Shown here: positions 3,186-49,871 of the stretch, in pieces
How the letters are laid out: each line of letters starts with the position of its first letter
Position numbering within the stretch: position 1 is the stretch's first letter
DNA from: Promethearchaeota archaeon
Lineage (GTDB): Archaea; Asgardarchaeota; Thorarchaeia; Thorarchaeales; Thorarchaeaceae
Direction of reading: 5' to 3'
DNA: 49,871 nucleotides
NCBI GenBank assembly: GCA_014728035.1
Contig: WJMJ01000080.1
Location: 1-49,871 of the forward strand
Notes under the pieces: model-generated
What the model saw: only the letters and a program-made list of their open reading frames with translations
Told to the model about the DNA's origin: nothing
Database searches by the model: none
Made by a program: the position numbers and the translations under genes

Positions 3186-3250
3186 TATTGCACATCTCTA
3201 CCGCTAGAGTATTGCTTATTTGCCCCTATCTGCTTTCTTAGCTAGATTCA

Positions 3251-9595: not shown

Positions 9596-9946
9596 TTGAA
9601 GACGAAAACTGAAAGGAACTTGACCATGGAGGCATATAGAAAAGTGCCAGTATATCTTGAGTTTAATCCATCCACTTCACAATACCATGAAACTACGAAA
9701 ACAACAAGCGATGATTCTATTCTACTAGTCATAGATGAGGGGCAGAAAAAACTGATAATGTCTGTACCTGGAAATGTGTCTATGATTCAAAGACGTGCTG
9801 CTGAAAGGCAAGCAAGAGGAATCAAAAAGACAGGCTTCTTATGTAGTGATGGTGGTAGAGCTGGGCGCGATCATGAATTAGAAGTACTTGGTGAGGGTGG
9901 CAGACTACCCGAGAGGCTTCGTGAAAGTCCCAGAGAAGTCTACTGA
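9596..9946 (+). CDS. Small protein, possible single-domain gelsolin-like (Asgard type); likely start 9626 or 9644
   Basis: SDDSILLVIDEGQKKLIMSVPGNVSMIQRRAAERQARGI resembles the gelsolin core (strand-strand-G-x-x-S-long helix); recognised by eye only. Confidence 0.4.
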   Translation: MKTKTERNLTMEAYRKVPVYLEFNPSTSQYHETTKTTSDDSILLVIDEGQKKLIMSVPGNVSMIQRRAAERQARGIKKTGFLCSDGGRAGRDHELEVLGEGGRLPERLRESPREVY

Positions 9947-9958
9947 ACAACAAACTGA

Positions 9959-9996
9959 GGAGCCCTGACCTCGGGCTCTCCATTTCTATTTGATTT
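9959..9996 (+). terminator. Hairpin terminator
   Basis: GGAGCCC-TGACCTC-GGGCTCT followed by T-rich sequence, just after the 9946 stop. Confidence 0.5.
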
Positions 9997-10102
9997 TCGC
10001 GGGATATTTCCTACATCAGCTATTCATTTATCAATTCCACCTCTAAGTCATTGATGAAATATAGGCATTAATTAGTCGAGAGAACTTGATTAGAGAAATC
10101 TA

Positions 10103-13100
10103 TTGTTAACTGAAATAAAAAGGGGTCTAACATTGACACAGGAAAAGGACAGAGATGGTGTTTCATCCCAAAGCAGTCCACTTGATTTAGTTATCAATCT
10201 AGTTCAATCTCAGAGCGACCCAATCATTGTATGTTCTTCAAAACGTATTCACTATGTAAACAAAGCGCTTATCGAATTATTGAATCTCTCTATTCCACAG
10301 GAAGATATAGTCGGGATATCTCAAAATAGAACAATTCAAAGTTTATTTTCCAATATTTTCAACAACACATCAAACATCGAATCGAATGGTACTACATCTA
10401 TCTATATTGATGACAGGGAAGTACGATTAGGATATTCAATACTGACATATTCCAACAGTTCCAATTCGACATTGCATGTAGTTCGAATTTTTCATCTCGA
10501 CCCATCAACAAGAATAACCAGTGTGGAAAAAATTCCAACAAAGAGCAAAGAAGAGTCTGAAAGATTACATTTCTTCTTTAGACGAATTGCGCAGGCTTCA
10601 ATGCAGAGTGCAGGTCTGAAAGATTTTGGAAATCAGATTTTACAATTCATTCTTGATGAATTTAATTTTGACATCGGTTCGATTAGGATACTTGATGATA
10701 ATTCCTTGATTCTTGTCGCACATGCAGGTCTTACCGAGTTGGAATTGGGTAGGCTATCTCTGTCACTTAATTTATCTGAGGACAGGTTTCTTCCCATTCA
10801 GGTGATAAAGAGGGGTAAACCATTGATTTCTGAAGACTTGCAAAGAGATGAGAGAGTAAGGCATCATGTAGACCCCTTTAGAAGGTTAAACACCAGAGCT
10901 CACATCTCGTGGCCTATTTTTGGATCAGACGGAGAAGCTATTGGGCTAGTGAATCTTGGTGCTCATCATCCACAGAGTATGACTGATGAGTACCTTAGCA
11001 TGTTCAAGAGCGTCATGGCCGTATTTGCTATAACAATCGAACATCAGTTGTCTATTCAAGATGTAAGAAGTCAAGAACAACGTTTTGAGATCTTATTCCA
11101 AGAGTCTCCATTACCCGCAGTCATCCTTCAAATTGATGGAAGCAAAGTTAATCCTCTGATGGTGAATCAGCGTGCTAAGAACTTCCTGGGACTAGATACA
11201 ACAGATGTCCATGAAAAATTACTTGGTGACATCTTCCCTTTTTCAATTGAGTGTATCCTAGAAGATATCCAGTCTCTTATTGCGGGTACTGCACTGGTTA
11301 ATCGAGAATTAGAATACGAGCTAACAAATGGTTCTGAGAGAATCGTCAAACTACATTATTCTCTAATCACAGACGATACGACCTTACTCTATCTTACAGA
11401 TTTAACAAGACAGAAGAATATTGAAGCTGAACTTCGAGAAACTAATAGCGCGCTTGTTGACGAACGTAATATGTTCATTAGCGGGAAAGTAGTACTATAT
11501 CGTTCTGGTCCTGAAATGAAAGGAATTCCCAAGTATATTTCTCAAAATATCGAGGCAATGTTTGGATATACTGTTGAGGAATGGATGAGTGGAAATATCT
11601 CATATCTGGATATTGTACATCCTGAAGATATCCATAGAGTCAGGAACCACCTTTTGAGTAGTATTAACGATAACAAGGAGACCATTCAGCATAAGCCCTA
11701 TCGGGTATACCAAAAAGATGGTTCTATTATATGGGTAGACCACCATGTAGTGATATCCTATGATGATGAAGGAAATGTTTTGAACTTCACTGGTTATATG
11801 ATAGACGTTACAGATTTACAAGAAACCCAAGAAGCATTACGCCTCAGCGAGAGAAACTATCGTTCGTTATCATCCAACCTTCCACATGGATTGGTCGTTA
11901 TTGATGGTTCAAACATTCTTTACCATAATCCACAATTTGAAGTCATGTTTAGAGATATTCTTCCAGACAATTTCGAAAACAACATTGACAGTTTTTTATC
12001 CGCGTTTAACTCTAACACTGGGTTAACTCTTCAAGATATGATACAACAGGGTGAAGATAGCTCGAAGGAACTGCAATCTTCAGATTATTGGATTGCACTA
12101 TCTAGCAATGATATGATGTGGGTTAATGTAATCGTTTCTAAGATTAGTTTTGAGGGGATAGATGCGATTCAAATTCTAATATCCGATATATCAGAACGAA
12201 AAAAGATTGAGCGATCTATTGAGACTACTAATGCTCTATTGGTTTCAACAATTGAGGCAGTTTCTATTGGTGTTTTAGCAATCGATACGAAAGGCAATAT
12301 TTTATACATTAATGAATTCATGAAGGAATTATGGGATATTATAGATAATGAAGATCTTTCTGCGGAAGAATTGTTGGATCTATCTATTGACGTAATTGAA
12401 AATACAGATATTCTAAGAGATTTCTTCAATATGAAGGAATGTACTGGTAACAGAATCGAAAGGCTTTGTTTTTCAAATGGTACTGTACTTGAAATGACCT
12501 GTTCTACATTGAAAAGAGAGGGTCAAAAATTTGGAAGAATTATCTTTTTCAGAGATATCACTGATAGCGAACTCAACCGTTCGATTGCTGAAGCAATGAG
12601 TGATTTGGGTTTAATGTTAGGTGGTACTCATGAGCTAGGTGATACTTTCACAATCTTCCTGAAAACAGCTATTTCAGTATCTAACATGGACTTTGGAGCT
12701 CTCTATGTTTACAATCAAGATACTGACGAACTAGATATCACCTGTTTCCAAGGATTTGATTCAGATAAGGTTTCAAGGATTAGATATTTTCCTTTCGAAT
12801 CTCATATGTCCAAGCTCATTCGGAAAAAAGAAGTCCGTTACATGAAGTTTCATGAAAGTAATCTAGCAGAATTCAATATCCATCCCAAAAAAGTACCGTT
12901 ATCTATTGCTGCAATTCCGCTTACATTCAATGACCAACTTGTTGCTGCACTGATTGCAGGTAGTTATTCAGAATATGATATACCCAAGAGGTCTCGACTA
13001 GCATTGGAGAATATAGGTCATCAAATTGCCAGTGCTATGGCACGAGTGAAATTCGAAACCACACTTAGAGTGAATGAAGAACGTTATAGGGCAATTCTGC

Positions 13101-36275: not shown

Positions 36276-36761
36276 TTGAACGAAGGAATACCAAAACGAT
36301 TGGATGATACTGATCCCGTTAAAATTTGCACATCTTGTGAATCTCAATGCTGTAAATTGGGTGGAGCAGTTGCAACTGAAAATGAATATCGAGCAATTGT
36401 TGAAACCGGCAATCCTGATTATTTCGAGAAGGTAACTGATGGTGTCTATCAAATGAAATGGATCGAACCAGAAGGTAGATGTCCGTATCTGGAAGATAAC
36501 CTTTGTACTATCTATTCAGTGAGACCACTTGGTTGTCGTATGTTTCCTGTTGTTCATGTCCAAGGAATCGGTCCCCACCTTGTTAGATGTGAACTTTCCT
36601 ATCACTTGACAAGTGCAACCATTATTGAGAGAGCATTATTACTATCTTCGCGTCCTGAAGAGGTTGCAGACGCAGTTCTTGATCATAGAAAGCGAGCATC
36701 TTGCAAATTTGAACGTCGTCTTAGTAGGTTTGATATTAATTATATCGAGATTGAAAAATAA
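36276..36761 (+). CDS. YkgJ-family (CxxCxxCC) cysteine-cluster protein
   Basis: CTSCESQCC, CPYLEDNLCTIYSVRPLGCRMFP. Confidence 0.85.
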   Translation: MNEGIPKRLDDTDPVKICTSCESQCCKLGGAVATENEYRAIVETGNPDYFEKVTDGVYQMKWIEPEGRCPYLEDNLCTIYSVRPLGCRMFPVVHVQGIGPHLVRCELSYHLTSATIIERALLLSSRPEEVADAVLDHRKRASCKFERRLSRFDINYIEIEK

Positions 36762-37022
36762 TTGATGCAATTTAGAAATTTCCTAAGCCACTCTGAACAA
36801 GTACCAGAAGCACAGTCATAGAAATTAGCGTCCATTTCTCTCTGATGGTATAGTGGATTGAGGTGAATATTTTCTCCCATTCTGGATAGCATTCATAGGT
36901 TTCCTTCTCTAGAATCGCATTAATCTCTTTAGTATTCCGAAGTACTTTCCTGAACTTCTATCTCAAAAAGCTGAAAACTCCTGTATGCAAGTTTGCAATC
37001 GATTCTGGTACAAAGATGATGT

Positions 37023-38159
37023 ATGCAATCTATTTATATGCTTAATATCGTTAACAATATCGTTAGTGATATAATGATGCAGGTTTCGCCCCTTCCTGGT
37101 TCTGAATTTCATGTTCTTAGTGTGATTTTTTCAGTACTTGTCACAATAATAGCTCTCCAACTTTATAGAAAAACGCGAGTAAAAGAGACCCTTATTTTTG
37201 CAGTCTATCCCTTGTGTTATGGAATATGGCAAGTTATATCACTACCTGCTGAATTTTGGCAAAACATCATTCTGGCAAAAATCGGATATCTAATTGGCAT
37301 AGCTGGTATTTTAGCTCTCTTTGCCTTTGGAGAACGTATACATACTCGATCTGGAATTCGGGAGATAGTCATATCCACCACTTTTGGAGCATTTCTCCTT
37401 GCTCTTGCCACGGATACAATGGTGCATATCTCTCCTGTAACAGGTGAAGTGCTTTTTGGTTTTGGTATCGAAGTGATTCTTATCGGAACATTTCTAACCA
37501 ATATCATTGGAATCTGGATGGTACGTGTTTCTTACAAGGTATACAAACGAACAAAATCATTGGAAGATAAGAAACCAGCACAAGCAGCTATGCTTTTCAT
37601 GTTGGCAATGGTAATTCTTATTTTTGCACATTCTGGACAACAGTCCGCATCATTATTTCTGGCCCCAGGTTTTGAACAACGATCTCTTGTTTTGATACCA
37701 ACCTTAGGTCCTCTCTTCATTCTTCTTTCACTATGGCGATTTTCTTACATTCCATATGTTCTCACGATTGAGGCTGAAGCATTGACAGTATATCACACAT
37801 CAGGTATTCCAATATATCATCGTACTTTGAGTAATGTTGTAACCCATGATCCGGCTCTTCTGACAGGAGCACTATCTGCCATCAACTCTTTTACTAAAGA
37901 GGTCGTATCTGATTCACAACTAAATGCAATTCAATTGGGAAGCTATATTCTTGAACACTATCATTCAGGTGAGTACACGATTCTCTTGGTAACACTCTCG
38001 AAAAACTCGATTGTTTCTAGTATACTACAGAAGTTCGTAGAGAGCGTTGCTGAACGGTTGAAAAAAGAAGATCCTGCTGGTCCGGAAGTGACAAAAATAG
38101 TATCTGAGAAGTTCAAAAATGAAGTTCCAATTCTCGTAGAACTTGCTCCTCCGACATAG
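37023..38159 (+). CDS. About 7-TM membrane protein with a C-terminal longin/roadblock-like domain
   Basis: About 7 hydrophobic helices, then YHTSGIPIY...DPALLTGALSAINSFTKEV...LNAIQLG, a pattern typical of Asgard longin-like domains; start may be 37074/37077. Confidence 0.6.
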   Translation: MQSIYMLNIVNNIVSDIMMQVSPLPGSEFHVLSVIFSVLVTIIALQLYRKTRVKETLIFAVYPLCYGIWQVISLPAEFWQNIILAKIGYLIGIAGILALFAFGERIHTRSGIREIVISTTFGAFLLALATDTMVHISPVTGEVLFGFGIEVILIGTFLTNIIGIWMVRVSYKVYKRTKSLEDKKPAQAAMLFMLAMVILIFAHSGQQSASLFLAPGFEQRSLVLIPTLGPLFILLSLWRFSYIPYVLTIEAEALTVYHTSGIPIYHRTLSNVVTHDPALLTGALSAINSFTKEVVSDSQLNAIQLGSYILEHYHSGEYTILLVTLSKNSIVSSILQKFVESVAERLKKEDPAGPEVTKIVSEKFKNEVPILVELAPPT

Positions 38160-38166
38160 ACTAATC

Positions 38167-38433
38167 CTATTGATCTCTTTGAGTTCGAAGTATAAAAGAC
38201 TTCGAGTCGATTGCTCATTGTGTTGCGAGTATTCCGTTTAGGTGGTCATACTCATGTTGCAGCAGCTCAGAGAGGTCATCCTTAAGGTTCTTCTTTTCTA
38301 TCCATTTTTCATCTCGGTAGAGAATGGTACAAGTTTTGTGACGCATTACTCGCACCACCAGTTCTGGAAAACACATCAGGTACCTCTATCATTTCGTAAC
38401 TTTTGGCAGTTTGTATATCTCTCTAACTGCTAT
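38167..38433 (-). pseudogene. def: Peptide deformylase pseudogene (internal deletion, in-frame stops, start mutated to ATA)
   Basis: Minus-strand translation: (I)AVREIYKLPKVTK**RYLMCFPELVVRVMRHKTCTILYRDEKWIEKKNLKDDLSELLQHEYDHLNGILATQ*AIDSKSFILRTQRDQ*. Contains the PDF motif QHExDHLxG. Confidence 0.85.
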
Positions 38434-38537
38434 GTTGGTCCAATTGTATCTCTCCTCGATAAAGAATCATATGAGGTTAACATAGGTTTCTGGACAGACT
38501 TTCCACAAGCTGTTATTGCAATCATAGCTATATTTAT

Positions 38538-38876
38538 ATGATAATTAATACAATGGTGATAATGGTGACAAATATGTCAACTGATGAAACAACTAATGAA
38601 GATCGCGATACGAGATTACGAATGCGTCGCAGATTCCAAGAACTTAAGGAAGCTCAACGCAAAAGAGAAGAAGCTAGTTCAGCATGGGTAATGGTAGCAT
38701 ACATAGGATTTCTTTTTACATTCATAGGATTCTTCATGATGCTAATCTTCTTGGGTGTTGTTCCTTTGACCCTGGAGATAATCATTTCAGCTGGTGTGAT
38801 TCTATTCGGAGTCTTCTTCATTGCAATTGGATTCTTCTTGAGAAATTCTCCTAGTTTAGTAATGGATGATATGTAA
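38538..38876 (+). CDS. Small two-TM membrane protein
   Basis: Charged N-terminal helix then two TM helices; start probably 38574. Confidence 0.6.
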   Translation: MIINTMVIMVTNMSTDETTNEDRDTRLRMRRRFQELKEAQRKREEASSAWVMVAYIGFLFTFIGFFMMLIFLGVVPLTLEIIISAGVILFGVFFIAIGFFLRNSPSLVMDDM

Positions 38877-38902
38877 GTGAAAAATAACACGAGGTGTGCC
38901 AT

Positions 38903-39286
38903 GTGACAAACGTAACAATACGCGGGATAGATGATCAAGTCTACAGTCTTTTTTCAGCTGAGGCTAGGAGACGTGGCGTTCCCATAGGCGAACTAGTTAC
39001 TCAGATCATGCGAATCTTTCTCGAAGAAACCAGTGAAAAGCAGTTTCGAATTGAAGATATGGATGAACTGACTTTAACGAAGGAAGAGCTAGAATCAGTG
39101 GGAGCTCCAATTAGTTTCAGTGGAATCAAGCATCTCCTAATCGCTGATGATGTTGATTGGGAAACTTTCGACAAATACGTTGACGAGATTCGTAAGTCAA
39201 AGACTGTAACAATTCCAAATTCTCTAACAAAACTTCAAGTTCTAACGAAATGTCGGAAAGTTGACAAGATTATTGAAGCCAAGTAA
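38903..39286 (+). CDS. Protein with an N-terminal ribbon-helix-helix (FitA/CopG-like) domain
   Basis: TNVTIRGIDDQVYSLFSAEARRRGVPIGELV; GAGGTG SD before GTG 38903. Confidence 0.7.
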   Translation: MTNVTIRGIDDQVYSLFSAEARRRGVPIGELVTQIMRIFLEETSEKQFRIEDMDELTLTKEELESVGAPISFSGIKHLLIADDVDWETFDKYVDEIRKSKTVTIPNSLTKLQVLTKCRKVDKIIEAK

Positions 39287-39627
39287 ATCTGAAATGAGGA
39301 AGTATGTTTACCTAAGAATCATAACAAGTTACTTGGATATGATATTAGGTACCTTACTATTTTTCTAATTTTTTCTCAACCTATTCTTTCAGGAATTGGG
39401 AATCTACTAGATTTCATTGTCTTGACTATTTCTTTCTAATATTGCAAGCTCGTGTGAATGATCTAAAAGCGAGTAATTTAGGTGTTCAAATTTCTCCTAG
39501 GCTGACGATCATCAATACTACATGGAACATGAAATATACTGAGATAAGAACATGCTCTCTTCTTTCAATCCTCAAATTCATTATTTACATACAATGAGGA
39601 TTTCTTTTTGTCTGCTAATTCTTAATT

Positions 39628-40356
39628 TTACTTCCCTTTGAGAAAAGCTTCAATTAGATTCATGATATGTTCAGTGATTTCTTCTTGGGTGAATCCAATC
39701 CTATCCAATACAGCACTACGAAGCTTAACCTCATCAGCCATTCCACTCATCAACATATACACGAATTGAGCGATATGAACATCATCCAAGTCTTTTCTTA
39801 TTGTACCATCTGATTTTCCTTTTCTAATGACCTTCATCCACAAATCTGTATTTCTCTTCAATTGAACATATAGTTCGATAAGGTAGGGTTCTTCGAAGTT
39901 CTTAAGCAATTTCTTGAATTCCTTCTTTTCCGTTCCTGCATCGATGATATCATACCATTTTTTTATCGTAACATTATGGAGTTGTACACGCTTGAAGAAT
40001 TCTCTCATGATGTCAAATATTATTCCTTTTTCTACACCAGATATGAATGCAGATTTTGCAAGTTGGAGAAACTGATCAATTCCTGGGATATCATTTGGAT
40101 AATTCTGTTCAATTCTGTCATTTGTAGTTTCAAACATCTGTCTTCCAATCTCAAAATAGATTGCATCCTTGTTCTGAAAATAATTGTACAACGTTGTACG
40201 ACTAACAAACGCTGATTCTGCAATCTCTTCTAGACTTACTTCTTCAAATGATCTTTTTGAGAACAACTTTTCAGCTGCGGTCAGAATATTTTGTTTGGTT
40301 CTCTCTTTTTTTCTGTAACGTAAGTTTTTCGTTTTTTGATCCTTTTTCGGTGTCAT
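39628..40356 (-). CDS. TetR/AcrR family transcriptional regulator
   Basis: ILTAAEKLFSKRSFEEVSLEEIAESAFVSRTTLYNYFQNKD. Confidence 0.92.
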   Translation of the reverse strand: MTPKKDQKTKNLRYRKKERTKQNILTAAEKLFSKRSFEEVSLEEIAESAFVSRTTLYNYFQNKDAIYFEIGRQMFETTNDRIEQNYPNDIPGIDQFLQLAKSAFISGVEKGIIFDIMREFFKRVQLHNVTIKKWYDIIDAGTEKKEFKKLLKNFEEPYLIELYVQLKRNTDLWMKVIRKGKSDGTIRKDLDDVHIAQFVYMLMSGMADEVKLRSAVLDRIGFTQEEITEHIMNLIEAFLKGK

Positions 40357-40486
40357 ATCATGGTACTAATTATTTACTCAATTTATAAATATTTACATTG
40401 AAACCATAATTAGTGTTATTGTATAATATTGTACTTATAGTAAAAGTTTATATGCAAAGTAAAGTGTACAAGTCAGGTGCTTAACT

Positions 40487-41137
40487 TTGAATCTTAGTAA
40501 ACTAAATGCAAAATTTGTAGGTCTTTTCATCATAATTACCTACTTGAGTTTGGTAATCAGTGGAATTATTCTTGCACCTTTGTTAGATGCCCCTGATATT
40601 TTGGCTGTTATATTTCCAAATGCCCTTATGTGGCAAGTTGGAGTATACGTTGAACTTGGAAATGCAATAGGTGTTCTAGGTATTGCTCTATTCATGTACC
40701 CATTTTTGAAAGAATATCATAAAGGACTAGCATTATTCTATGTTGGTATCCGATTAGTTGAATCAATATTCTCAGCGATTGCTTCCATGAGTCGATTACT
40801 CCTCATTGATATCAGTAGTGCATATTTGGACGCTGGTTCACCAAGTAATTCATATTATCAAGGCTTAGCTGATTTCGCACTTGCAATATACCACTGGGCT
40901 TTTGAGATGCCAACAGTCTTTTTCCTTATTGGAGCAGTGCTTTTCTATTTCCTACTGGAACAAACAGAATTGGTGCCTAGGTATATCACTATCTGGGGAT
41001 ATATAGCTGTAATTGCATTGTTAATCCTAAACATTTTTGGTGCATTCTTAGGTGTAATTGCATTTGTTTTCGCACTTCCAATAATAACGAATGAGATATT
41101 CTTAGCAATCTGGTTGATTGCGAAGGGTGATTTTTGA
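40487..41137 (+). CDS. DUF4386-like multi-TM membrane protein, divergent from TetR
   Basis: IALFMYPFLK...ALFYVGIRLVES, LVPRYITIWG, NEIFLAIWLIAKG. Confidence 0.7.
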   Translation: MNLSKLNAKFVGLFIIITYLSLVISGIILAPLLDAPDILAVIFPNALMWQVGVYVELGNAIGVLGIALFMYPFLKEYHKGLALFYVGIRLVESIFSAIASMSRLLLIDISSAYLDAGSPSNSYYQGLADFALAIYHWAFEMPTVFFLIGAVLFYFLLEQTELVPRYITIWGYIAVIALLILNIFGAFLGVIAFVFALPIITNEIFLAIWLIAKGDF

Positions 41138-41157
41138 TAGATTAGATGTGAATCTTA

Positions 41158-41198
41158 TGGAGATCACTTGGTCTCCAATCCCTTTTCTTTTTCTTTTC
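41158..41198 (+). terminator. Hairpin plus U-tract terminator
   Basis: TGGAGATC-ACTT-GGTCTCCA followed by CCCTTTTCTTTTTCTTTT. Confidence 0.6.
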
Positions 41199-41417
41199 AC
41201 CGTTGAATCTTGACTTCTATCTCTCATTATGGTCATTGTGAGTAGAACTTGTGCATGACTTTCTTCACTGATTTTATTGCTTCCTCATCTAGAGGTGCAT
41301 AGAACTCAAGACTTCACAATTCTATTTTCTTGATGAGTTATGAATTCTCGCAATCTGTTTCATTCACCTCTTCGAACGTTTTTGGTGCCCATACCTCTTT
41401 CTATCCTGTTCCTATGG

Positions 41418-41438
41418 AATAAATTAGAACACGTGTTC
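41418..41438. repeat. 21-bp direct repeat, copy 1 (AATAAATTAGAACACGTGTTC)
   Basis: Identical to 44319-44339; palindromic core GAACACGTGTTC. Confidence 0.85.
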
Positions 41439-41623
41439 CAAAACTCTACTTCTCAAAACCTTTTTCGAATCTTTTCAAAAGTTAAGAATTCTGTTGATCT
41501 CGCGTGTGCAGCACTAATTGCTGACTCTGAAATACATCCTACTAATCGTGAAAAAAAGCTCTATCTCAAATCACACTTGAGTCTCTATTTATGATAGTCA
41601 AAATGAAATTGATATAACCTTTG

Positions 41624-41653
41624 AAAAAAGTAGAAGTCCCGCCCGAAGGCGGG
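41624..41653 (-). terminator. GC hairpin with UUCG loop plus U-tract
   Basis: Minus strand CCCGCC-TTCG-GGCGGG-ACTTCTAC-TTTTTT, just after the 833-aa gene stop. Confidence 0.8.
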
Positions 41654-41661
41654 TAGTAGAT

Positions 41662-44163
41662 TTATTGCTTACGTTTACGACTGAAAACAACTACACCAAT
41701 GATGACGACTAATACCACTGCTGCAATGATGAGCAAGGTATTGATGTCTAGGTCTCCTATCAATGATGATGCAGTTATTTTCACTAAGACTGTATCAGAC
41801 ACTTCTTGACCATATGCATCAGTTACTGTCAATGTTACTTCATAACCAGCGGCTTCCCAGTCAGTCAAATCGACCGTTACGGAGTTTCCATCCCAGACAT
41901 CTGTAGTTTCTGTTGAACCATTTATAGTAATGGTATAACTGTCTGGACTGATGCTATATGGTGTCCAAGTGATTTCATGGGGGCCATCTGAGCCTGCTTG
42001 GAATTCTATGTCTGATGGACTGTCGATTGAAGGCCGTAGCATGAACACGATCTGATTAATCCACAACTCAAAGTTGTCTTTGTATGCTGATTCATCAGTA
42101 TCTCCGTTGTATTGATCTATCAAGTACCCATTGTAGAGAGATCTACCATTCAATCCAAGTACAATAGAAGCTTCATCTGCGGTTACGGATGATGCATATC
42201 CTGCAATAGCTGTTGCGTTATCAAACACAGTAAGAGCTTCACCAGTTCGACCATAGTCCTCTCCTCCCGAAACATATGATTCTCCGAGATCAATAGGATT
42301 ATTGAAGATTGGATGTCCTGCGTCCCAGAAATATGTGGTAGATGCTACTGTCTTTTCATCTGCATAAGCAAATCCTAGTTTTGCCCAAAGTGGCTCATCC
42401 GGATGTGTTACAGTCCAATAATATGATATGATCAATTTTCCACCAGTATCAAGATAATCACTTGTATCATTAGTATAACCCATTGCAGCCCAAGGTGAGT
42501 CAAAAATAACAAGATCCCATTCATACCAATACAAGCTCCTATTGTAGAAATCCTGATTTCTAACTGGGAAATAGTTCAAACCAAGTTCATTGAGAGCAAG
42601 AGCAGCAGGTGATTTTTGAATTATAGTGAACGGATAATTTGTGTAGTACAGAATCTTCGCATCTGTAGAGGTTAACCAATCGGCGGCGTCAACAGCGTAG
42701 TATTTGTTTCCAGAGGTTTTAAGACGCAAACTATCAAAGATATTGATATCTGAAAAGAGTAGGACTCTTCCCTCACCATATTCCTGTGCAGCTACTACGA
42801 TGTTGTTCCCGTATTTGTAAACTGCTTTTGCATCATTCCCTGTGAGATTGATGTAATTTCGATAACTGATTCCTATACTTCCAGAAGTCTTGGCTGAAAT
42901 ATGGTATGGTGTAGCTCTGATTGCAGTCTGATCATCCAATACATTATATGAACCGATCTCCATATCATAGTCCGCAAGCAGTTCATTGATACGTTCGTTC
43001 CCTCCTGATGGTAAGAATCCTGATCGATCTCCCATAACCAACATTGATCCCCCATCTGCTACCCAATTATTGATTGTTGACATTTCAGTTGTAGTATAAT
43101 TCAAGTCAGGCCAACTGAGAATTATCATATCATATTGTTCAAGTCTTTCAGTTGTGAAGTTACCTTCGGATGAGGGGAAGAACTTGTCAAAGGTGTATGA
43201 ATGATTGACGAGTAGATTCCTGTACTCTCCATAATTATTGGTAGGACTCCAAGTTGTTGCGAATTCGTCCCAACTGTCCACATGTAATCGTGGTTGATGT
43301 GAGAAGTCAAATGCAATCCTCGCCTTTGGTCTTGGTGCTAACCAATCTACAGCATCAATTACTAAATTGTTGATGTCATTGCTCCATGGGTCAATAGGTA
43401 TACCGATGTGCACGACTTTTCCTCCCTTATCGTTAGGATCACTAGCAACAATAACAGCCTCATTTGGATCAGCTGCTGATAGGGCTAGAATCTCTACTGA
43501 ACTATATATGGAGGCTGTTGAGAGGCTATCAACAAGGTACGTACCATAATTCAAAGTAGTATATGTTAGTTGGTCTGTTACATCATAGGATTTTGTAACC
43601 GGATGTAGTGTCTGAATCTCTGCTGGTCCAGTACTAACATAATTCCAGAATGCATATCTGCCATCATCTATACTCTCGTTTTCTCTAGGCAATATTCCTG
43701 CCCAACCAAGATATCCGATTGAACTATCGAAACTGAGAACACCTCCACCTCCTAGCCAGAATTCTTTAACATGGTTCGAGATATTTTCTCGTGGATTATT
43801 ATCAGGTAAGACAATTACATCATAATCTGCTAATATAAGCTTATAATCCAGAATATCTTGGAAAGTGATTCTGTCAACTGAATATCCAGCATTATCCAAT
43901 ACACTGTAAATGATTGAATAATTGGTATTCATGCTTCCTTGTGTGTAAGCTGGACATGTAAAATTAGTTTCATTATATAATGCAACACGAATTTCTCTAT
44001 CTGGTAGAGCACTTGGCGTTGAGGTTTCATAAAGGGGTGAAGTATCCGATGTAATTTGACTGGATGATATTGATGGTGATATCGCTGAAGGCACCATGAA
44101 TATTCCTGTCAAAAACAAAGTAACCATAATAAGAAGGCTGACGCGTTTCATACCTATCCTCAA
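41662..44163 (-). CDS. Secreted surface protein with repeated GATase-like/DUF4350-type domains, an Ig-like domain and a C-terminal TM anchor
   Basis: Signal peptide; repeated L-x-x-YD-V/M-I-V/I-L...W-x-x-x-GG-x-x-L units; YGEGRVLLFSD; Ig-like YEVTLTVTDAYGQEVSDTV; TM then RKRKQ. Confidence 0.75.
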   Translation of the reverse strand: MRIGMKRVSLLIMVTLFLTGIFMVPSAISPSISSSQITSDTSPLYETSTPSALPDREIRVALYNETNFTCPAYTQGSMNTNYSIIYSVLDNAGYSVDRITFQDILDYKLILADYDVIVLPDNNPRENISNHVKEFWLGGGGVLSFDSSIGYLGWAGILPRENESIDDGRYAFWNYVSTGPAEIQTLHPVTKSYDVTDQLTYTTLNYGTYLVDSLSTASIYSSVEILALSAADPNEAVIVASDPNDKGGKVVHIGIPIDPWSNDINNLVIDAVDWLAPRPKARIAFDFSHQPRLHVDSWDEFATTWSPTNNYGEYRNLLVNHSYTFDKFFPSSEGNFTTERLEQYDMIILSWPDLNYTTTEMSTINNWVADGGSMLVMGDRSGFLPSGGNERINELLADYDMEIGSYNVLDDQTAIRATPYHISAKTSGSIGISYRNYINLTGNDAKAVYKYGNNIVVAAQEYGEGRVLLFSDINIFDSLRLKTSGNKYYAVDAADWLTSTDAKILYYTNYPFTIIQKSPAALALNELGLNYFPVRNQDFYNRSLYWYEWDLVIFDSPWAAMGYTNDTSDYLDTGGKLIISYYWTVTHPDEPLWAKLGFAYADEKTVASTTYFWDAGHPIFNNPIDLGESYVSGGEDYGRTGEALTVFDNATAIAGYASSVTADEASIVLGLNGRSLYNGYLIDQYNGDTDESAYKDNFELWINQIVFMLRPSIDSPSDIEFQAGSDGPHEITWTPYSISPDSYTITINGSTETTDVWDGNSVTVDLTDWEAAGYEVTLTVTDAYGQEVSDTVLVKITASSLIGDLDINTLLIIAAVVLVVIIGVVVFSRKRKQ

Positions 44164-44318
44164 TTATAGATGACTAGATTGCCATATAAACTATAGCAGA
44201 CTAATAACTTGTAGAATTGTCCTACATCTCTTTTATTTTCTCAATGTATTCCTTAAGACCGGATTCATCTATTTTCGAAGATCTTGTAGAATTCATACTT
44301 GCTTGAATATCCATTTTC

Positions 44319-44342
44319 AATAAATTAGAACACGTGTTCTAA
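44319..44342. repeat. 21-bp direct repeat, copy 2, extending into a perfect 18-bp palindrome TTAGAACACGTGTTCTAA (44325-44342)
   Basis: Read directly; matches 41418-41438. Confidence 0.85.
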
Positions 44343-44472
44343 ATACATGTCTATCTTACACTTGCTTTTTGGAAATATCGAAAGTTATCCAGAAAATGTA
44401 ATGTGTCAAAAGGTATTCTATAGAGTATTAGATCTCTTCTGGACTGGTTTTCCAGAAGAGTATCTACTATTG

Positions 44473-45162
44473 TCAGAGGAAAATACTATCCCCATACCAT
44501 CCAGTGTTCCAAGCAACTTGTCCCATTGTGTACATGACGCCATTTCCATTGTCATTATACCTTGGTGTTTCACTGCGGCTATCCATTGCAGCTGCATAGA
44601 CAAAAGCTTCACGCATGGAGATATCTCCATCCTGATTGAAATCTGCATCACAAGCTCCATCGCCATTGAGGTGCCAACCAATGAGACCACTCATGAAGTG
44701 ATAGACAAACTCATCCCATTGACCTTCTGTGTCACAACCTGCAGAACCCTCATCATCCCCACAAGCAGTTAGAATCACTCGTTCAGGGGCGCTGATGTAT
44801 TCTATGAATTTTCCAGATACACATTGCTCCATTACAATAATCATATGCTGACACGTTATTGAATCTAGCAAGGACGCTACATGATTGTGAGTGAGTACCC
44901 CTGCCGAGTCCATGGGATTCCACACACTGATACCGCCATATCCTCCATGATTCGTTGTATAGAAGAATAATGTGTCACGCGACCCCATTTCCGTACTGAG
45001 ATCATCGAAGAGTGTATTCATGGATGGGTTAGTGGCAGGGTAATCCACCGTTGTGTATGGGTCTTCTGCAACACCATCCTTGTATACAATGTATATATTC
45101 TCAGCCTCATACCCGTGCATTAACAGAATGAAGTTCATGTATATGATGTCATTCCAGTAGCG
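44473..45162 (-). pseudogene. C-terminal (catalytic) part of an interrupted C13/legumain-like clan CD peptidase
   Basis: RYWND..., His motif FFYTTNHGG, Cys motif IIVMEQCVSG, RVILTA, DFNQDGDISMREAF. The first 30 aa of track ORF 44473-45252 come from the insert. Confidence 0.85.
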
Positions 45163-45329
45163 ATTGTTTCTCCTAAGAGAATATAATCTCATGAAGGTTC
45201 CTGATAAAAGATGAGTTTCTGTTTCTCTCTTCATCATCACTATATTGGTCATTAGGAATGTCTCGTTAGAATGGATATACTCAAAGAATGAGTTTATATC
45301 CGGTCAAGAGTATCCGTACTTGATAGAGG

Positions 45330-46391
45330 ATGACTCCTTATACAGGGTTTCGTACGGTGTTCAAGACGTGCCAACAAGAGGGGAATTGTACAAGTGTTGA
45401 AGTACAGAACCAATACGATCTAAACCTACTCAATAACTACTCCTCAATTACCGAAGTGTTCATCAGAGGAGCCTCAAGGCAACTGGATCTGACTCCCCTC
45501 AAAAGATGTACTTATCTGAAAGAATTAACATTCTATGATTGTTCTCTCTCTTCTCTCGACATCACTCCCATAGTGGATCATCCAAATCTTGAGACTTTAT
45601 ACCTATCATCAACAGGATTGAAATCTTTGATTTACTCCTCTCAGATAAATTGGCCGTCGTTGAAGTCGCTAAGAATCATAGACACGCATCTCTCAACACT
45701 AGATCTCTCATTCATATCGGTGAGTGAGGGGTTGAGGTATCTGCACCTCATGAACAACTGTCTGGATTCTCTGGATCTATCTCTACTACGTTCATGTCGT
45801 GAATTAGACACGTTAAATATTTCCAATAATCAGCTCTCAAACATTGATCTCTCTCCTATTGCCACTCATAAATTTCTGAGTAGACTGGATATCTCGGACA
45901 ATATGTTGACCTCTTCTTTGGATCTGTCGGATATCACTGCTCCTCTATGGAATGGTATCGATCTCTCAGGAAATTGTCTGGACTCTGTAACTCTATCCAA
46001 ACACATACGGGGAAAAATCAATCTATCTAAGAATCGCCTGACTTCTATCAATCTATCTCCTCTCTCACAAATGCAGACTGTGAAGATCAATCTCTCTCAA
46101 AATGAACTCTCAGAGATAGATCTCTCTCCTCTAAGCAACAGATACTGGGGCATCGATAGAGACCTGTTCTTCGGCAATGACTATGTCCATGGACTGGAAG
46201 GGACAGTTGATAGGCTAGAGTTAGACCTCTCTCACAATCTGCTCAGGACTATCGATCTAACCCCTCTTGCAACAATACCTCGGATAGCATACCTAGATAT
46301 ATCCGATAATCCGCTGGATCAGATCGAGAAGACTCTGTTCTCTAAGAGTGACAACGAAAAAGTTGCTATCCTCGGGTTCTCATATAGATAG
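45330..46391 (+). CDS. Leucine-rich repeat protein (cargo)
   Basis: More than 10 LxxLxLxxNxLxxLDLxxL-type repeats. Confidence 0.9.
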   Translation: MTPYTGFRTVFKTCQQEGNCTSVEVQNQYDLNLLNNYSSITEVFIRGASRQLDLTPLKRCTYLKELTFYDCSLSSLDITPIVDHPNLETLYLSSTGLKSLIYSSQINWPSLKSLRIIDTHLSTLDLSFISVSEGLRYLHLMNNCLDSLDLSLLRSCRELDTLNISNNQLSNIDLSPIATHKFLSRLDISDNMLTSSLDLSDITAPLWNGIDLSGNCLDSVTLSKHIRGKINLSKNRLTSINLSPLSQMQTVKINLSQNELSEIDLSPLSNRYWGIDRDLFFGNDYVHGLEGTVDRLELDLSHNLLRTIDLTPLATIPRIAYLDISDNPLDQIEKTLFSKSDNEKVAILGFSYR

Positions 46392-46861
46392 TCCTTGATA
46401 CATTCCGAGAATGATACCTCTTCTTACCATGCACTGTGGGTTTGAATAGCGTACTTCGATTTGCAATATGTCTATCAATTTTTTGGATGTTTCATTTCTC
46501 TTTGACACAATGAGAATCTCATCATTGATGTATGACGAAGATTTACTGATAATCTCTGTTTTGAAATCTTGCGACCTTATTTGATTATGAATCACAATCT
46601 CCACGAGCGACAAGAGTACGAAGAGAGCAAAACAAACAATGAATAATGCATCTCCAAATCCAAGCACACTACTTAGTCCAAAACCAATATTTAGCAATAT
46701 TGAAACAACCACAAGGAATGCAGCTATGATCTGCCAAAGTGTGGTTGTGGTTGCCCTTATATCGGCCCATGATTCCTTTACACAATGGACAAGAACGGAT
46801 AATAATGCATTATCTATATCCGAGATTTCTTTACTGCATCTTTTAATTCCTTTTTGGACAT
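46380..46861 (-). pseudogene. Frameshifted two-TM membrane protein (cargo)
   Basis: ATG 46861 gives MSKKELKDAVK then an early TAG. One extra A at GTAAAGAAATC joins it to the open frame EISDIDNALLSVLVHCVKESWADIRATTTTLWQIIAAFL..., which continues into track ORF 46380-46712. Confidence 0.55.
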
Positions 46862-47007
46862 TAACAAAACATCCCCTGATTCACTTTGTAATGAAATAAG
46901 ATGAATGTTTCTTAGACCGGAGTATTTCATCAGAAGTTACTATTCTAGAGGTTAATAAAACAATCCAATCCGAAACTATAACTATCTTAAATTGAATCAA
47001 TCAGAAC

Positions 47008-48453
47008 ATGTCAAGTATGCTGAGTGTTGTAGGAGCATCTCGAATCAGTAATACGGTCTATTTTGCTGCAGGTTCTATACTTTGGACTGCTTTACTTGTT
47101 TGGGTTGATTTTAACTTAACTGTGGATATAAATACAGGTCTTGTGGTAGTTGGAGGAAGTTCGATATTTGGTACTATTTTTTGGGCAATTACACTCGAAA
47201 AACGCGTGTTGTTTCCAATTATCCATTATTTGACCATGAAAAGAGCCAGAGATTTTACACGATGGATGGCAAACGATTTGCTGCTGATAAAACCATGGCA
47301 AACTTCTATTGTACCTTATGTATCAATTGAAGAAAAACTGGAATGTGAAGTAGAATCGATATTGCGGTCTAAACTGCTTGAACCAGATATGGAACGACTC
47401 TTTATGCTATTCTATCTATTGTTAACAAGTATTCCGTTTGGATATCTAGTTATTAATTCAATTCCAATAGAATTCTCACTCAGAATTAATGTGCTTTCTT
47501 GTGCTGTTCTAGTGGGATTTATCCTATACATCGTAATCAGTATATTTGTACTATATGACCTCAGAGAAAGGCCCAGAAATATTCTCACTCTTAGCTATTT
47601 TGATTGGTTAAGAACTACCATAAGTAATGATCGAAGTCGTCGAGAAAGAAAAATATTCAGGTCCCGTTCTGGACCAACTCATAGATTGGAGGAGTTAGAG
47701 GTTCTCTATGACTTCTCCGGTGAAGTATTAGTTCAAATGAGAACGAAACACTGGAAATGGCTTGATGAAGCTCTTGCGAGTTATCGTGACCTTCGTGGAC
47801 CTATCTTCTCTTTGACTTCATTCCAGAATGATTACAATGATTTCATCGAAGATATACTTCATTGTTTTAGACTTCAAAAAGGAACAACTCATCTTGATAC
47901 TCAAAAGCAAAATATCTACAGCGTTGTTCTAAGGACTGGAGCGGTACAATCAATCAGCGAAATCTTGGATGTGATTGAGAGTGTCAAACATATCAAAATT
48001 CCATGGGATATTCCAGATCTTCGTTACATTGAAGAAACCAAAGACATACTAAAGGTATTTAGATCTATAGCGAATTTGTTCAGTGTAGCAAATTACGTAA
48101 GATTACTCAAGTCAATGGATTCGGTTTCTTTCAAATTTATGTCTGCTAATGTATGCAAAGAATTGGCTCAACACGTTTACCTGCATTGCGAACAAAAAAC
48201 ACCATCATTTCAAAGTGATCCTACACCTGAACGTGTAATACTATACCTCTTAGAGGCATCAAAATCGAAATGTATTTCTAGTACAGATGTATTTTCAATC
48301 GGACAAAAATGGAAAGTATCTCCCTCCAAGTATATTTCAAAGTTATCCAATGACCAATCTCGTTTGTTTTATGAATACTTCTGGAACCGGAACACAACTA
48401 AACTAAAAACACCTATTTGTGATGGAGTATCGTTATTATTGAATCGAAACTAA
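47008..48453 (+). CDS. Hypothetical protein with 4 N-terminal TM helices and a helical cytoplasmic domain (cargo)
   Basis: 481-aa ORF; no recognisable catalytic motif. Confidence 0.65.
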   Translation: MSSMLSVVGASRISNTVYFAAGSILWTALLVWVDFNLTVDINTGLVVVGGSSIFGTIFWAITLEKRVLFPIIHYLTMKRARDFTRWMANDLLLIKPWQTSIVPYVSIEEKLECEVESILRSKLLEPDMERLFMLFYLLLTSIPFGYLVINSIPIEFSLRINVLSCAVLVGFILYIVISIFVLYDLRERPRNILTLSYFDWLRTTISNDRSRRERKIFRSRSGPTHRLEELEVLYDFSGEVLVQMRTKHWKWLDEALASYRDLRGPIFSLTSFQNDYNDFIEDILHCFRLQKGTTHLDTQKQNIYSVVLRTGAVQSISEILDVIESVKHIKIPWDIPDLRYIEETKDILKVFRSIANLFSVANYVRLLKSMDSVSFKFMSANVCKELAQHVYLHCEQKTPSFQSDPTPERVILYLLEASKSKCISSTDVFSIGQKWKVSPSKYISKLSNDQSRLFYEYFWNRNTTKLKTPICDGVSLLLNRN

Positions 48454-49247
48454 CCATGTGTATCGATTTTGCCTCTCTGATGATTACTTTGAGATGTTTG
48501 AAGGTTATATATTCGATTTCACGTACACCCATCAGTTCTTGGATATCCGCATGGGAAGAATCCCCATCTCTTAATAGAAAATCAATTAACATAGGATAAT
48601 ATCCTCCGAAGTGATGAGTATGGCAACTTCTTCTTTCGATACCTAATCCAATTTACAAATCCCAAAAATACAGATAATTTCCTATCTTATAGGTTCTATT
48701 TGGATGAAACAGCAATAGAAATGATACCTATTGGCAATAATCAATAAGGATTATTATTCCTCTTATTTCCTTTTCTACCAATGTTCTTTTAGCTTTAACT
48801 GACAATACAAACGAAAAACGTGAGAGAAACTCGTGGTTTGACTTCGCGTGTTGTGGATAATAAACTAAAAAGCATTGAAATCTTCCATGATCGAGCTGAG
48901 AATGGACAGATTCATCCATCAAAATAGTGATGCTGAAACTATACTATCGTATTGTCATCTACTTCATGATGATTTCAGTCAACTCTAGATTCTTGCTCTC
49001 CCTTGGAATGAGAATTTTGTTTCAACAAAACTACAAAATCAGACTATCGAGTTAGAGGTCAAACTTAGTTCAACTCAAGCATGAATGGACTGACTGAGCA
49101 ACTCAGTTGCACAATGATAGTCTAAGTCTGACTAGGTGATTAATTTGCTTATATTGTCTATCCTTGTTTGATGGATTTTGATGTGATTTTTGAAGAAGAG
49201 CATCTTAACTTTCACGCGCTGAAATGTGGTTGAAAGTTACTACGATC

Positions 49248-49817
49248 ATAGTAAGCTTTCTCAGGCTTAATCCCTCCGCTGTACAAGACTGCATATTTGG
49301 TTGCGTCAGGATCCAGCTGAAAGAGGTCAAGGTCTCCCAGTGTGCTTGCATTTTGAATCGAGTCATCATATACCCCTGGATAGTAATCCTTGGAGCTGGT
49401 AGCGATGAGCTCACTAAAGTCAATAGAAAGAACTAGGTCTGACTCATCTCCCCAGCCTATCTCTCCTTTCACTGAAACTCTTTCTCCAATATGGTCTGCC
49501 ATAGAATCTGGAACGTTACCTGTCATTATGACATAATTTGAAGGATTGAGCGAATTATTGACATAGGCAGCTGGATTAGAGATTAGTAGATGGAAATCAT
49601 TAGATTTCACATAGTATCCTTCTAAGGTCAGAATCTCTCCTATATGACTGGTTGGATTTTCAGTTATATCTTCCAGGCCCTGCGGAACATTTTCCGCTGG
49701 AACTGACGGCTGATAGAACATAAAATAATACACTGTTGCTGCATTAGTGATTATAAGAATGAACACTAGAGCTAGCAAAGATTTTGATTTGCCTGCTTTC
49801 TTTGGCATGCTTTTCAC
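49248..49817 (-). pseudogene. N-terminal part of the interrupted C13-like peptidase (signal-anchor, OB-fold-like domain, first catalytic-domain strand)
   Basis: Basic N-terminus plus TM; HIGEILTLEGY / HIGERVSVKGEI; ends KYAVLYSGGIKPEKAYY. The last ~11 aa of track ORF 49212-49817 come from the insert. Confidence 0.8.
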
Positions 49818-49871
49818 ATCTATTTTGATAATTGAATAATGGATATGGGTCTAATAGCTAATAAATTGAGA

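Follow-up and report, generated by a model that had tools for sequence, protein, structure and literature searches.

How does a conserved protease gene of a Thorarchaeon come to lie in two pieces some 4 kb apart, and is the DNA between them a mobile element, a genetic switch, or neither? The window analysed here is a 49,871-nt contig, and the host genome data consist of a single MAG. A sequence-only reading of this window had taken two of its open reading frames for the two parts of a single peptidase gene, which is borne out by alignments to unsplit homologues. The minus-strand gene is broken at 45162/45163 and 49247/49248, with 4,085 bp between the breakpoints (Table 1). Its N-terminal half encodes 190 residues, comprising an N-terminal membrane helix, the N-domain and a first strand (...YAVLYSGGIKPEKAYY), after which an 11-residue tail from outside the gene runs up to a stop codon at 49212. 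The C-terminal half, 229 residues starting with RYWND and ending at the stop codon 44473-44475, holds the catalytic His and Cys and matches the Pfam family Peptidase_C13 (PF01650, E = 2.8e-10) with 40.6 bits, above the gathering score of 22.8 bits that we took as the threshold for membership. On these sequence grounds we assign the interrupted gene to peptidase family C13 (legumain/GPI8-like), with a product predicted to be a membrane-anchored cysteine protease.

We found 185 homologues of this peptidase, all with PF01650 and for the most part 417-450 aa long and unsplit. More than 100 homologues in Thorarchaeota carry the gene in one piece, and it is conserved and single-copy in this group. 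Where the gene is broken here, the homologues read SGGIKPEKAYY/RYWND. As had been claimed, the His/Cys dyad is intact: the motifs TNHGG (His) and MEQCVSG (Cys) are both kept and fall in alignment columns that do not vary among 106 homologues, and the 1,257 nt of the split gene contain no stop codon. An empty site, which the sequence-only reading had proposed to look for in relatives, is present in the syntenic orthologue of a related Thorarchaeon (P0229, locus L027), where the DNA is contiguous through the break site and the neighbours are the same. Positions 2908-3483 of L027 correspond to 49821-49249 of the window (N half, 75% nucleotide identity), and positions 3485-4172 to 45162-44475 (C half, 80%). 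Two ways of rejoining the halves had been put forward, and both keep the frame: deletion of 45163-49247 gives a peptidase of 419 aa, deletion of 45161-49242 one of 420 aa. Since the orthologue and the other homologues support the first, and the second adds an Asp that is present in none of them, the 419-aa form is, judging from the alignments, the right one. The bases common to the two junctions are AT (2 bp) in register, found at the left end of the insert (45163-45164) and in the host flank (49248-49249), or CGAT (4 bp) one codon off.

The insertion appears to be recent, as indicated by a dN/dS of about 0.05 against the L027 orthologue (with dS saturated), by a number of derived changes at conserved sites that does not differ significantly between the split gene and its relative (6 versus 3, p = 0.5), and by the lack of stop codons. 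From the peptidase gene to the next conserved gene the window carries ∼6.7 kb more than L027, and the region around the peptidase is unusually plastic in this genome.

Table 1. Features of the split peptidase gene, of the DNA that interrupts it and of their junctions (window coordinates).
Feature	Position	Strand	Basis
3' part of C13 peptidase gene	44473..45162	-	Pfam PF01650, alignments
Insertion, 4,085 bp, single copy	45163..49247		Empty site in L027 orthologue; self-hit only in genome
Hairpin, 5-bp stem, at opposite insert end	45168..45181		Chance level (z +0.5, -0.2)
Mosaic piece 1, LRR-protein gene region	45271..46410	+	84.7% nucleotide identity to L022; LRR Pfam matches
166-codon open frame, predicted membrane helices	46380..46880	-	ORF list
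481-aa all-helical membrane protein, rare family	47008..48453	+	22 representatives; AlphaFold model
Non-coding stretch, about 750 nt	48454..49205		No convincing ORF
Hairpin, 9-bp stem and 16-nt loop, in insert, 8 nt from its end	49206..49239		Stability as in shuffled sequence
Junction palindrome GAAAG-TTACTAC-GATC-ATAGTAA-(g)-CTTTC	49232..49260		P about 5e-4 for such a hairpin at either junction
5' part of C13 peptidase gene	49248..49817	-	ORF list, alignments to unsplit homologues

The insert is a patchwork of accessory DNA pieces of chromosomal type. Its first piece, a gene for an LRR protein (45330-46391, 353 aa) plus short flanks (59 nt on the upstream side, 19 nt on the downstream side), corresponds to positions 9942-11081 of L022, found in another chromosomal context in a related archaeon, and this homology stops sharply at 46410/46411. 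The minus-strand open frame that crosses this boundary has no upstream start, would give 110 aa if read from a GTG at 46712, and matched nothing in a family search; because its 3' end falls inside the LRR piece, it is probably truncated or spurious. The 481-aa protein belongs to a family with as few as 22 representatives in 1.8 billion proteins, and its AlphaFold model (pLDDT 79) consists of helices only and has no match in the PDB. Its homologues adjoin AbiTii-, HSDR_N- and HNH-like genes as well as restriction-modification/helicase genes, surroundings that look defence-island-like from their gene content. As a candidate recombinase this protein was rejected, given its all-helical model, the lack of a PDB match and the lack of a recombinase domain. 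The non-coding stretch matched neither RNA families nor protein families. Decay had been claimed for the cargo; this fits the start-less frame and the non-coding DNA, but not the genes for the LRR protein and the 481-aa protein, which are both intact.

Searches of the genome with the insert and its ends gave the self-hit only, short-word matches to the ends occur at chance level, and a match to an insert end on contig C70 turned out to be a ribosome-binding site with a start codon. No DNA relatives of the insert were found in 85 genomes of the same family. The insert had been described as free of terminal inverted repeats and of transposase or integrase genes, and so it is: no such repeats were found, and neither was a recombinase domain in any of its ORFs or frames (Pfam, NCBIfam, PHROGs, PADLOC). 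The hairpins described at its two ends both exist, but they fold no better than shuffled sequence, the ends showing no extra stability as single strands (z = -0.6, -1.8, +0.5 and -0.2). The reverse complement of the 5-bp hairpin looks like a ribosome-binding site.

The near-palindrome that had been seen at the right junction is the one feature that stands out as non-random; it is real and larger than first described, with 29 bp, of which 11 bp are paired with one bulge, and with a dyad axis at 49245/49246, centred on GATC. Host coding sequence, namely the final 13 nt of the flank, makes up its right arm, and its left arm is formed by the last 16 nt of the insert. Hairpins of this quality occur twice in the 49.9-kb contig and 168 times in the 4.33-Mb genome, which contains no twin of the palindrome itself (e.g., a dif-like site). 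As the palindrome is made of host flank and of an inverted copy of it in the insert, it suggests that the broken host end passed through a fold-back or snap-back intermediate, and not that the element brought a hairpin along.

We give somewhat better than an even chance to a one-off, repair-mediated insertion of the 4,085 bp, which would have made a young pseudogene of this conserved gene. A double-strand break inside the peptidase gene would have been repaired by illegitimate recombination of the microhomology or end-joining type: the host end would first have copied its own last 12-13 nt by fold-back (snap-back) around the centre GATC, relocated DNA would next have been joined to this copy, and the other side may have been sealed via the 2-bp AT microhomology. 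Snap-back end joining is documented for eukaryotes and bacteria; for Asgard archaea, no such demonstration is known to us. The SD-MMEJ model describes illegitimate insertions with snap-back templated bases (Yu and McVey, 2010, PMC2943611; Khodaverdian et al., 2017, PMC5728401), in which bases inserted by snap-back synthesis at a break end up within a longer inverted repeat (PMC5728401). Our insert resembles such insertions in its 2-4 bp of junctional microhomology, in junction bases that extend an inverted repeat of the flank, and in being a single copy with neither transposon ends nor target duplication. The documented cases, by contrast, come from flies and mammals, where breaks made by nucleases acquired short insertions of a few nt up to tens of nt; here the mirrored bases are followed by 4 kb of patchwork DNA, and the host is an Asgard archaeon. 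Several observations speak against the repair route: the mechanism is read from one junction, where the mirror comprises only 12-13 nt with one mismatch and one bulge; the 419-aa ancestral sequence leaves a 'GA' at the palindrome axis unaccounted for; and the 9-bp hairpin 8 nt from the end, together with a flank able to pair immediately 5' of it, resembles the layout of single-stranded DNA (HUH) transposon ends.

The sequence-only reading had taken the insert for a non-autonomous element mobilised in trans (HUH/rolling-circle or serine-recombinase type). The enzyme, encoded elsewhere, would be an HUH/Y1 single-strand transposase (IS200/IS605-like), a rolling-circle type (IS91/Helitron-like) or a serine recombinase (IS607-like). 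We regard mobilisation of this kind as unlikely. The lack of terminal inverted repeats, a target duplication of at most 2 bp and the subterminal 9-bp hairpin are all in line with it, and in our reading of the sequence the last four host bases (CTAT) can pair with GTAG located 5' of the hairpin foot, in the manner of IS608-type elements, in which a guide pairs with the cleavage site. The host flank pentamer ACTAT also resembles the other insert terminus, ACAAT, and among the genes of this genome are a fragment of a Y1 transposase, a serine resolvase, an IS110 transposase and TnpB genes, next to a family of mini-IS607 elements with 41-42 copies of its core 18-mer. IS200/IS605 elements and their passenger-only derivatives (PATEs; IS608, ISDra2) share with the insert the absence of terminal inverted repeats and target duplication, the subterminal hairpin, and a flank pairing with bases beside it. 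Yet such elements are multi-copy, carry a conserved hairpin at either end, use a fixed target of 4-5 nt and are served by a cognate Y1 transposase, whereas the insert occurs once, has a convincing 9-bp stem at one end against a 5-bp stem at the other, and lacks such a partner; the sole Y1 match, on contig C98, is a fragment of 36 aa at the contig edge and shows no resemblance to the insert ends. The complementarity of the flank extends over 12-13 nt and overlaps a hairpin arm, versus 4-5 nt for IS200/IS605 guide pairing. The position of the hairpin, 8-9 nt from the end, fits rolling-circle (IS91/Helitron-like) elements, in which a 3' hairpin lies ∼10 nt from the end, but Helitron termini (5' TC / CTRR 3') are not present, and Y2/Helitron Rep models (PF04986, PF14214) matched nothing in the genome, control genomes being equally silent. 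With IS607-type elements and the mini-IS607 of this genome the insert has in common the absence of terminal inverted repeats, a junction identity on the 2-bp scale and an intragenic position. The abundant, active resident family (MITE consensus), however, has a G-G-T core and, below each of its ends, TTGGACA doublets, and the insert has neither: its only TTGGACA is internal, at 46854, and its junction dinucleotide is AT. Further points against mobilisation in trans are the single copy, a left-end hairpin at chance level with neither end folding unusually well, the mosaic cargo with its sharp internal boundary, and the outcome of the search for sibling elements that had been suggested, as the ends recur neither in the genome nor in the 85 relatives. 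A bolder version, in which the insert is the first copy of an undescribed Asgard cassette system that depends on a recombinase in trans, moves LRR and defence-type genes between chromosomal sites via a hairpin or palindrome intermediate of the element end and a complementary host target, and restores the gene upon precise exit, seems to us very improbable.

Site-specific integration, whether by a tyrosine recombinase of the host (Xer-type, IMEX-like) or by some unknown recombinase, would make the palindrome a hybrid core site, with arms of 11-13 bp and a short spacer. Its arms and spacer are indeed arranged as in simple core sites of recombinases, the genome has one tyrosine recombinase gene, and the insert lacks a recombinase of its own, but the palindrome exists at this junction only and lacks a twin in the genome. 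No matching half-sites can be read at the other junction, in the reconstructed target or in the reconstructed circle junction, and the shared core of 2-4 bp lies off the dyad axis, which makes this scenario very improbable. A programmed or conditional intervening element, whose exact excision restores the peptidase, as for skin, nifD, fdxN, hupL and active-lysogeny switches, could account for the stop-free halves with their catalytic residues and for the family-typical sequence obtained by exact deletion; intact halves are, however, expected just as much from a recent insertion. Like the insert, skin (Bacillus subtilis sigK) and nifD/fdxN/hupL (Anabaena) are multi-kb interruptions whose exact removal restores the frame, but these elements encode their own recombinase (SpoIVCA, XisA, XisF and XisC), possess defined, longer core repeats and are conserved within species. 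Here there is no element-encoded recombinase, the core repeat measures 2-4 bp (AT or CGAT) instead of 5 bp or more, and the split arrangement is not conserved, since no interruption is seen in the orthologue or in any other homologue. The contig was also assembled through both junctions without a bubble, which speaks weakly against an empty allele being frequent; such a switch is highly improbable. Metagenome scans with two stretches of 30-35 nt from the 5' part of the gene, common to either allele, gave no match. Splicing of the insert from RNA as a giant bulge-helix-bulge (BHB) intron by the tRNA-splicing endonuclease finds some basis at the 420-aa junction, where a central helix of 4 bp (AGUA/UACU) can be sketched between 3-nt bulges. 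Its flanking helices are nevertheless poor (3/5 pairs, mismatches beside the bulges), equally good motifs occur at chance level (38 among the 5,202 junction combinations tested), and the junction supported by homologues forms no central helix in either arrangement. Since the insert also measures 4 kb, carries both of its intact genes in the orientation opposite to the peptidase and is missing from the L027 orthologue, we consider an intron extremely improbable. Finally, the arrangement might be an assembly artefact from a mixed-strain metagenome bin, for which a bin contamination of 8.5% could speak, as could the contig end, which forks into two continuations (C31 and C32) that are 85% identical, so that two related populations were evidently co-assembled. 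Yet a chimera would need to exit the gene and, after 4 kb, resume it at exactly the codon where it had left off, neither junction has a repeat of assembler k-mer length, and the sequence past the palindrome is not a fold-back of the contig; we hold an artefact to be very unlikely as well.

The insert cannot be recognised as a transposon or integrative element, and as nothing shows it to be mobile or to act as a switch, the gene was most likely disrupted recently in an ordinary way, the palindromic junction being the one oddity; the present evidence reveals no new mobile element and no new genetic switch. The locus offers a clean, well-dated case of an Asgard archaeon losing a gene to an insertion, with an exact empty-site orthologue. 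It also illustrates the plasticity of this stretch of the Thorarchaeota chromosome and shows that LRR and defence-type genes are relocated within these genomes. The palindromic junction would record the processing of the break. Double-strand-break repair is little known in these relatives of eukaryotes, and if more such junctions are collected, their palindromic signature could inform on how Asgard archaea repair these breaks.

The two peptidase open reading frames near the right end of the window, which is the entire contig C46 of a Thorarchaeota-type bin of 4.33 Mb in 173 contigs (97.9% completeness, 8.5% contamination), are halves of one gene, as the sequence-only reading had proposed. With the second (3') ORF as protein query, 185 relatives were retrieved, almost all of them in bins of Thorarchaeota and other Asgard groups, and these are typically 417-450 aa long and unsplit, a continuous ...KAYY|RYWND... 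spanning the break point. Two in-frame rejoinings had been put forward: the one that joins 49248 to 45162 yields 419 aa and aligns to the homologues without a gap, while the 420-aa version, via a CGAT repeat, adds an Asp present in none of the 106 aligned homologues and was discarded.

Comparison with an empty site in a relative had been suggested as a check. A cluster look-up brought up an intact 417-aa orthologue (P0229) that two Logan assemblies from a related Thorarchaeon contain. The neighbours on its contig (L027) agree with those in the window: FKBP lies upstream, the NiFeSe hydrogenase and Hdr genes downstream. L027 positions 2908-3483 correspond to 49821-49249 of the window and 3485-4172 to 45162-44475, the DNA at the site reading TAC|CGC in the relative versus TAT|[4,085 bp]|CGC in the window. 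This contiguity across the break at the DNA level makes an insertion at 45163-49247 as firmly established as a sequence comparison made without reads allows. Scans of metagenomes with the last 30 nt of the gene's 5' part and with the gene's first 35 nt gave zero matches.

Features of the split peptidase gene and of its insert (window coordinates)
Feature	Coordinates	Strand	Remarks
5' peptidase ORF	start 49817, stop at 49212	-	membrane helix, N-domain and ...YAVLYSGGIKPEKAYY, then 11 unrelated codons
3' peptidase ORF	from 45162 to end 44473	-	reads RYWNDIIYM...; matches Pfam Peptidase_C13
LRR protein gene, 353 aa	45330-46391	+	
Open frame with membrane helices	46380-46880	-	no upstream start; last codons within the LRR piece
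Gene for 481-aa protein	47008-48453	+	
Stretch without convincing ORF, protein-family match or RNA-family match	48454-49205		

The insert is a patchwork. Its LRR gene has an orthologue (P0122, 81% identical) in the same related organism that carries the intact peptidase, and at the DNA level 45271-46410 corresponds to positions 9942-11081 of that organism's contig L022 (84.7% identity), with a sharp right edge at 46410|46411 and no homology to L022 past 45271 or 46410 exceeding that of shuffled controls. There, the LRR gene sits outside any peptidase gene, and the sequences on its two sides have their counterparts on contigs C37 and C157 in the genome that the window comes from. This other location, together with the lack of similarity beyond the edges, shows that a chromosomal LRR gene was relocated along with unrelated DNA, a combination that is unlike a conserved transposon. 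The matching position on C157 holds a different LRR open frame (517 codons, 38% identical; C157 3827-5377 versus L022 9998-11059), and the sequence downstream of it is shared; replacement of LRR genes seems to take place at fixed loci.

Among 1.8 billion proteins, just 22 representatives are related to the 481-aa protein, which is modelled as all-helical (pLDDT 79) with no match in the PDB and was absent from the IMG/VR, plasmid and phage collections searched. It is a membrane protein from a rare family centred on Thorarchaeota (also at loci L002, L004, L023 and L024), whose genes adjoin AbiTii-, HSDR_N- and HNH-like genes with restriction-modification and helicase genes nearby, which suggests a defence-island gene. 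The gene upstream of the homologues differs from locus to locus (LRR, AbiTii-like, HSDR_N-like nuclease or HNH) in defence-island-like surroundings, and the 481-aa gene and its variable neighbour may form a two-gene defence module. On contig C583 of another Thorarchaeon, G326 (loci L004 and L012), a homologue and a C13 peptidase paralogue lie ~9 kb apart, which may be a coincidence. As had been noted, the insert is devoid of a recombinase: nothing in it resembles a tyrosine, serine, DDE, HUH or IS110 enzyme, and an Rfam search at E up to 1 returned a sub-threshold snoRNA match alone, with no group I/II intron and no TnpB-associated RNA.

Mobilisation in trans, the origin first proposed, would have to draw on enzymes encoded elsewhere, and the genome does carry a Y1 transposase fragment, one resolvase, one IS110 transposase, TnpB genes and one tyrosine recombinase, the IS110 and Y1 loci sitting on short or edge contigs; none could be linked to the ends of the insert. 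Small transposons are active in this genome, namely a mini-IS607 family whose core 18-mer occurs 41-42 times, with TTGGACA doublets at the ends and G-G-T at the junctions, hallmarks not found at the ends of the insert. A TTGGACA doublet also occurs at 98-114 of the window, which makes it probable that the contig starts part-way through a mini-IS607 copy. The genome-wide search for sibling elements went against mobility: neither the insert nor its terminal 140 nt recurs anywhere else in the genome, only chance-level matches came from blastn-short, fuzzy patterns and short words, and 0 DNA relatives were detected across 85 same-family genomes. The best of these matches, on contig C70 and identical to the left end over 16 nt, proved to be a ribosome-binding site and start codon. 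Neither shared end motifs beside other LRR paralogues nor the palindrome half-site near the 481-aa gene homologues of other genomes were found. Nor do the hairpins said to mark both ends stand out: the four end segments, folded as single strands, gave z-scores of -0.6, -1.8, +0.5 and -0.2 against shuffles, so hairpin ends are not a significant property of the insert. We regard a trans-mobilised element as unlikely, and a programmed switch that restores the peptidase gene by precise excision as very improbable. Removal at the RNA level is not supported either: a scan of both junctions for bulge-helix-bulge motifs gave none at the homologue-supported (419-aa) junction, and the 420-aa junction permits a 4-bp central helix whose flanking helices are poor; 38 motifs of similar quality turned up in the 5,202 combinations scanned.

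The insert's one significant feature is the near-palindrome at its right junction, correctly recognised from the start, where the plus strand at 49232-49260 reads GAAAG TTACTAC GATC ATAGTAA g CTTTC. Its stem comprises 11 bp with one bulge, plus a T·G position beside the self-complementary GATC; only two hairpins of this quality occur in the contig (168 in the genome), and the chance of one lying <=3 nt from either junction is about 5e-4. The other, the strongest in the contig, is at 44429-44465 (15-bp stem, loop CTGGTTT), 8 nt past the peptidase stop codon, and may be a terminator or protein-binding site. In the junction palindrome, host coding sequence supplies the right arm with its last 13 nt, and the final 16 nt of the insert form the left arm and GATC. 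Since host DNA makes up one arm, the palindrome is not an element-borne hairpin; its left arm repeats the flank in inverted orientation, a copy that arose at the insertion event or was selected by it. A recombinase core or Xer/dif-like site was rejected, this junction alone being palindromic and a twin site absent from the genome, and so was an integron cassette, the hairpin having no RYYYAAC/GTTRRRY boxes and the junction lying, from the sequence, 8-10 nt off the attC recombination point. Guide pairing of the IS200/IS605 type involves 4-5 nt; here 12-13 nt are paired, in a single copy. When a broken end undergoes snap-back synthesis or is joined head to head, the added bases lengthen an inverted repeat of its flank (PMC5728401; PMC2943611). 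This would be the simplest known process to give such a junction, and break repair with a fold-back step is our best-supported guess for the mechanism; our confidence in the overall reading is somewhat better than even.

Between the peptidase and its orthologue, synonymous sites are saturated, dN is 0.08-0.12 and dN/dS about 0.05; lineage-specific changes at conserved sites number six in the window's gene versus three in the relative (p = 0.5, 106 outgroups), and the halves, described as free of stops, carry neither stops nor frameshifts over 1,257 nt. Together these point to an insertion that is young relative to the split of the two lineages, and the intact halves call for no special explanation. 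At the contig end, 141 nt (49731-49871) recur identically in two continuations, on contigs C31 (1-524) and C32 (3702-3179), which are 85% identical over an FKBP gene and then diverge; from this fork, two related populations are co-assembled, and the peptidase allele of the second is not in the bin.

Compared with L027, the window holds a further ~6.7 kb between the peptidase gene and the next conserved gene (36760-44472 versus L027 4175-5195), with the gene for an 833-aa surface protein (41662-44163) that the sequence-only reading placed between flanking 21-bp palindromes. The initial observation is thus confirmed and its interpretation supported in part only: what split the gene is a mosaic insertion, real, recent and present in a single copy, which inactivated a conserved peptidase gene, in a neighbourhood that is plastic in this lineage.
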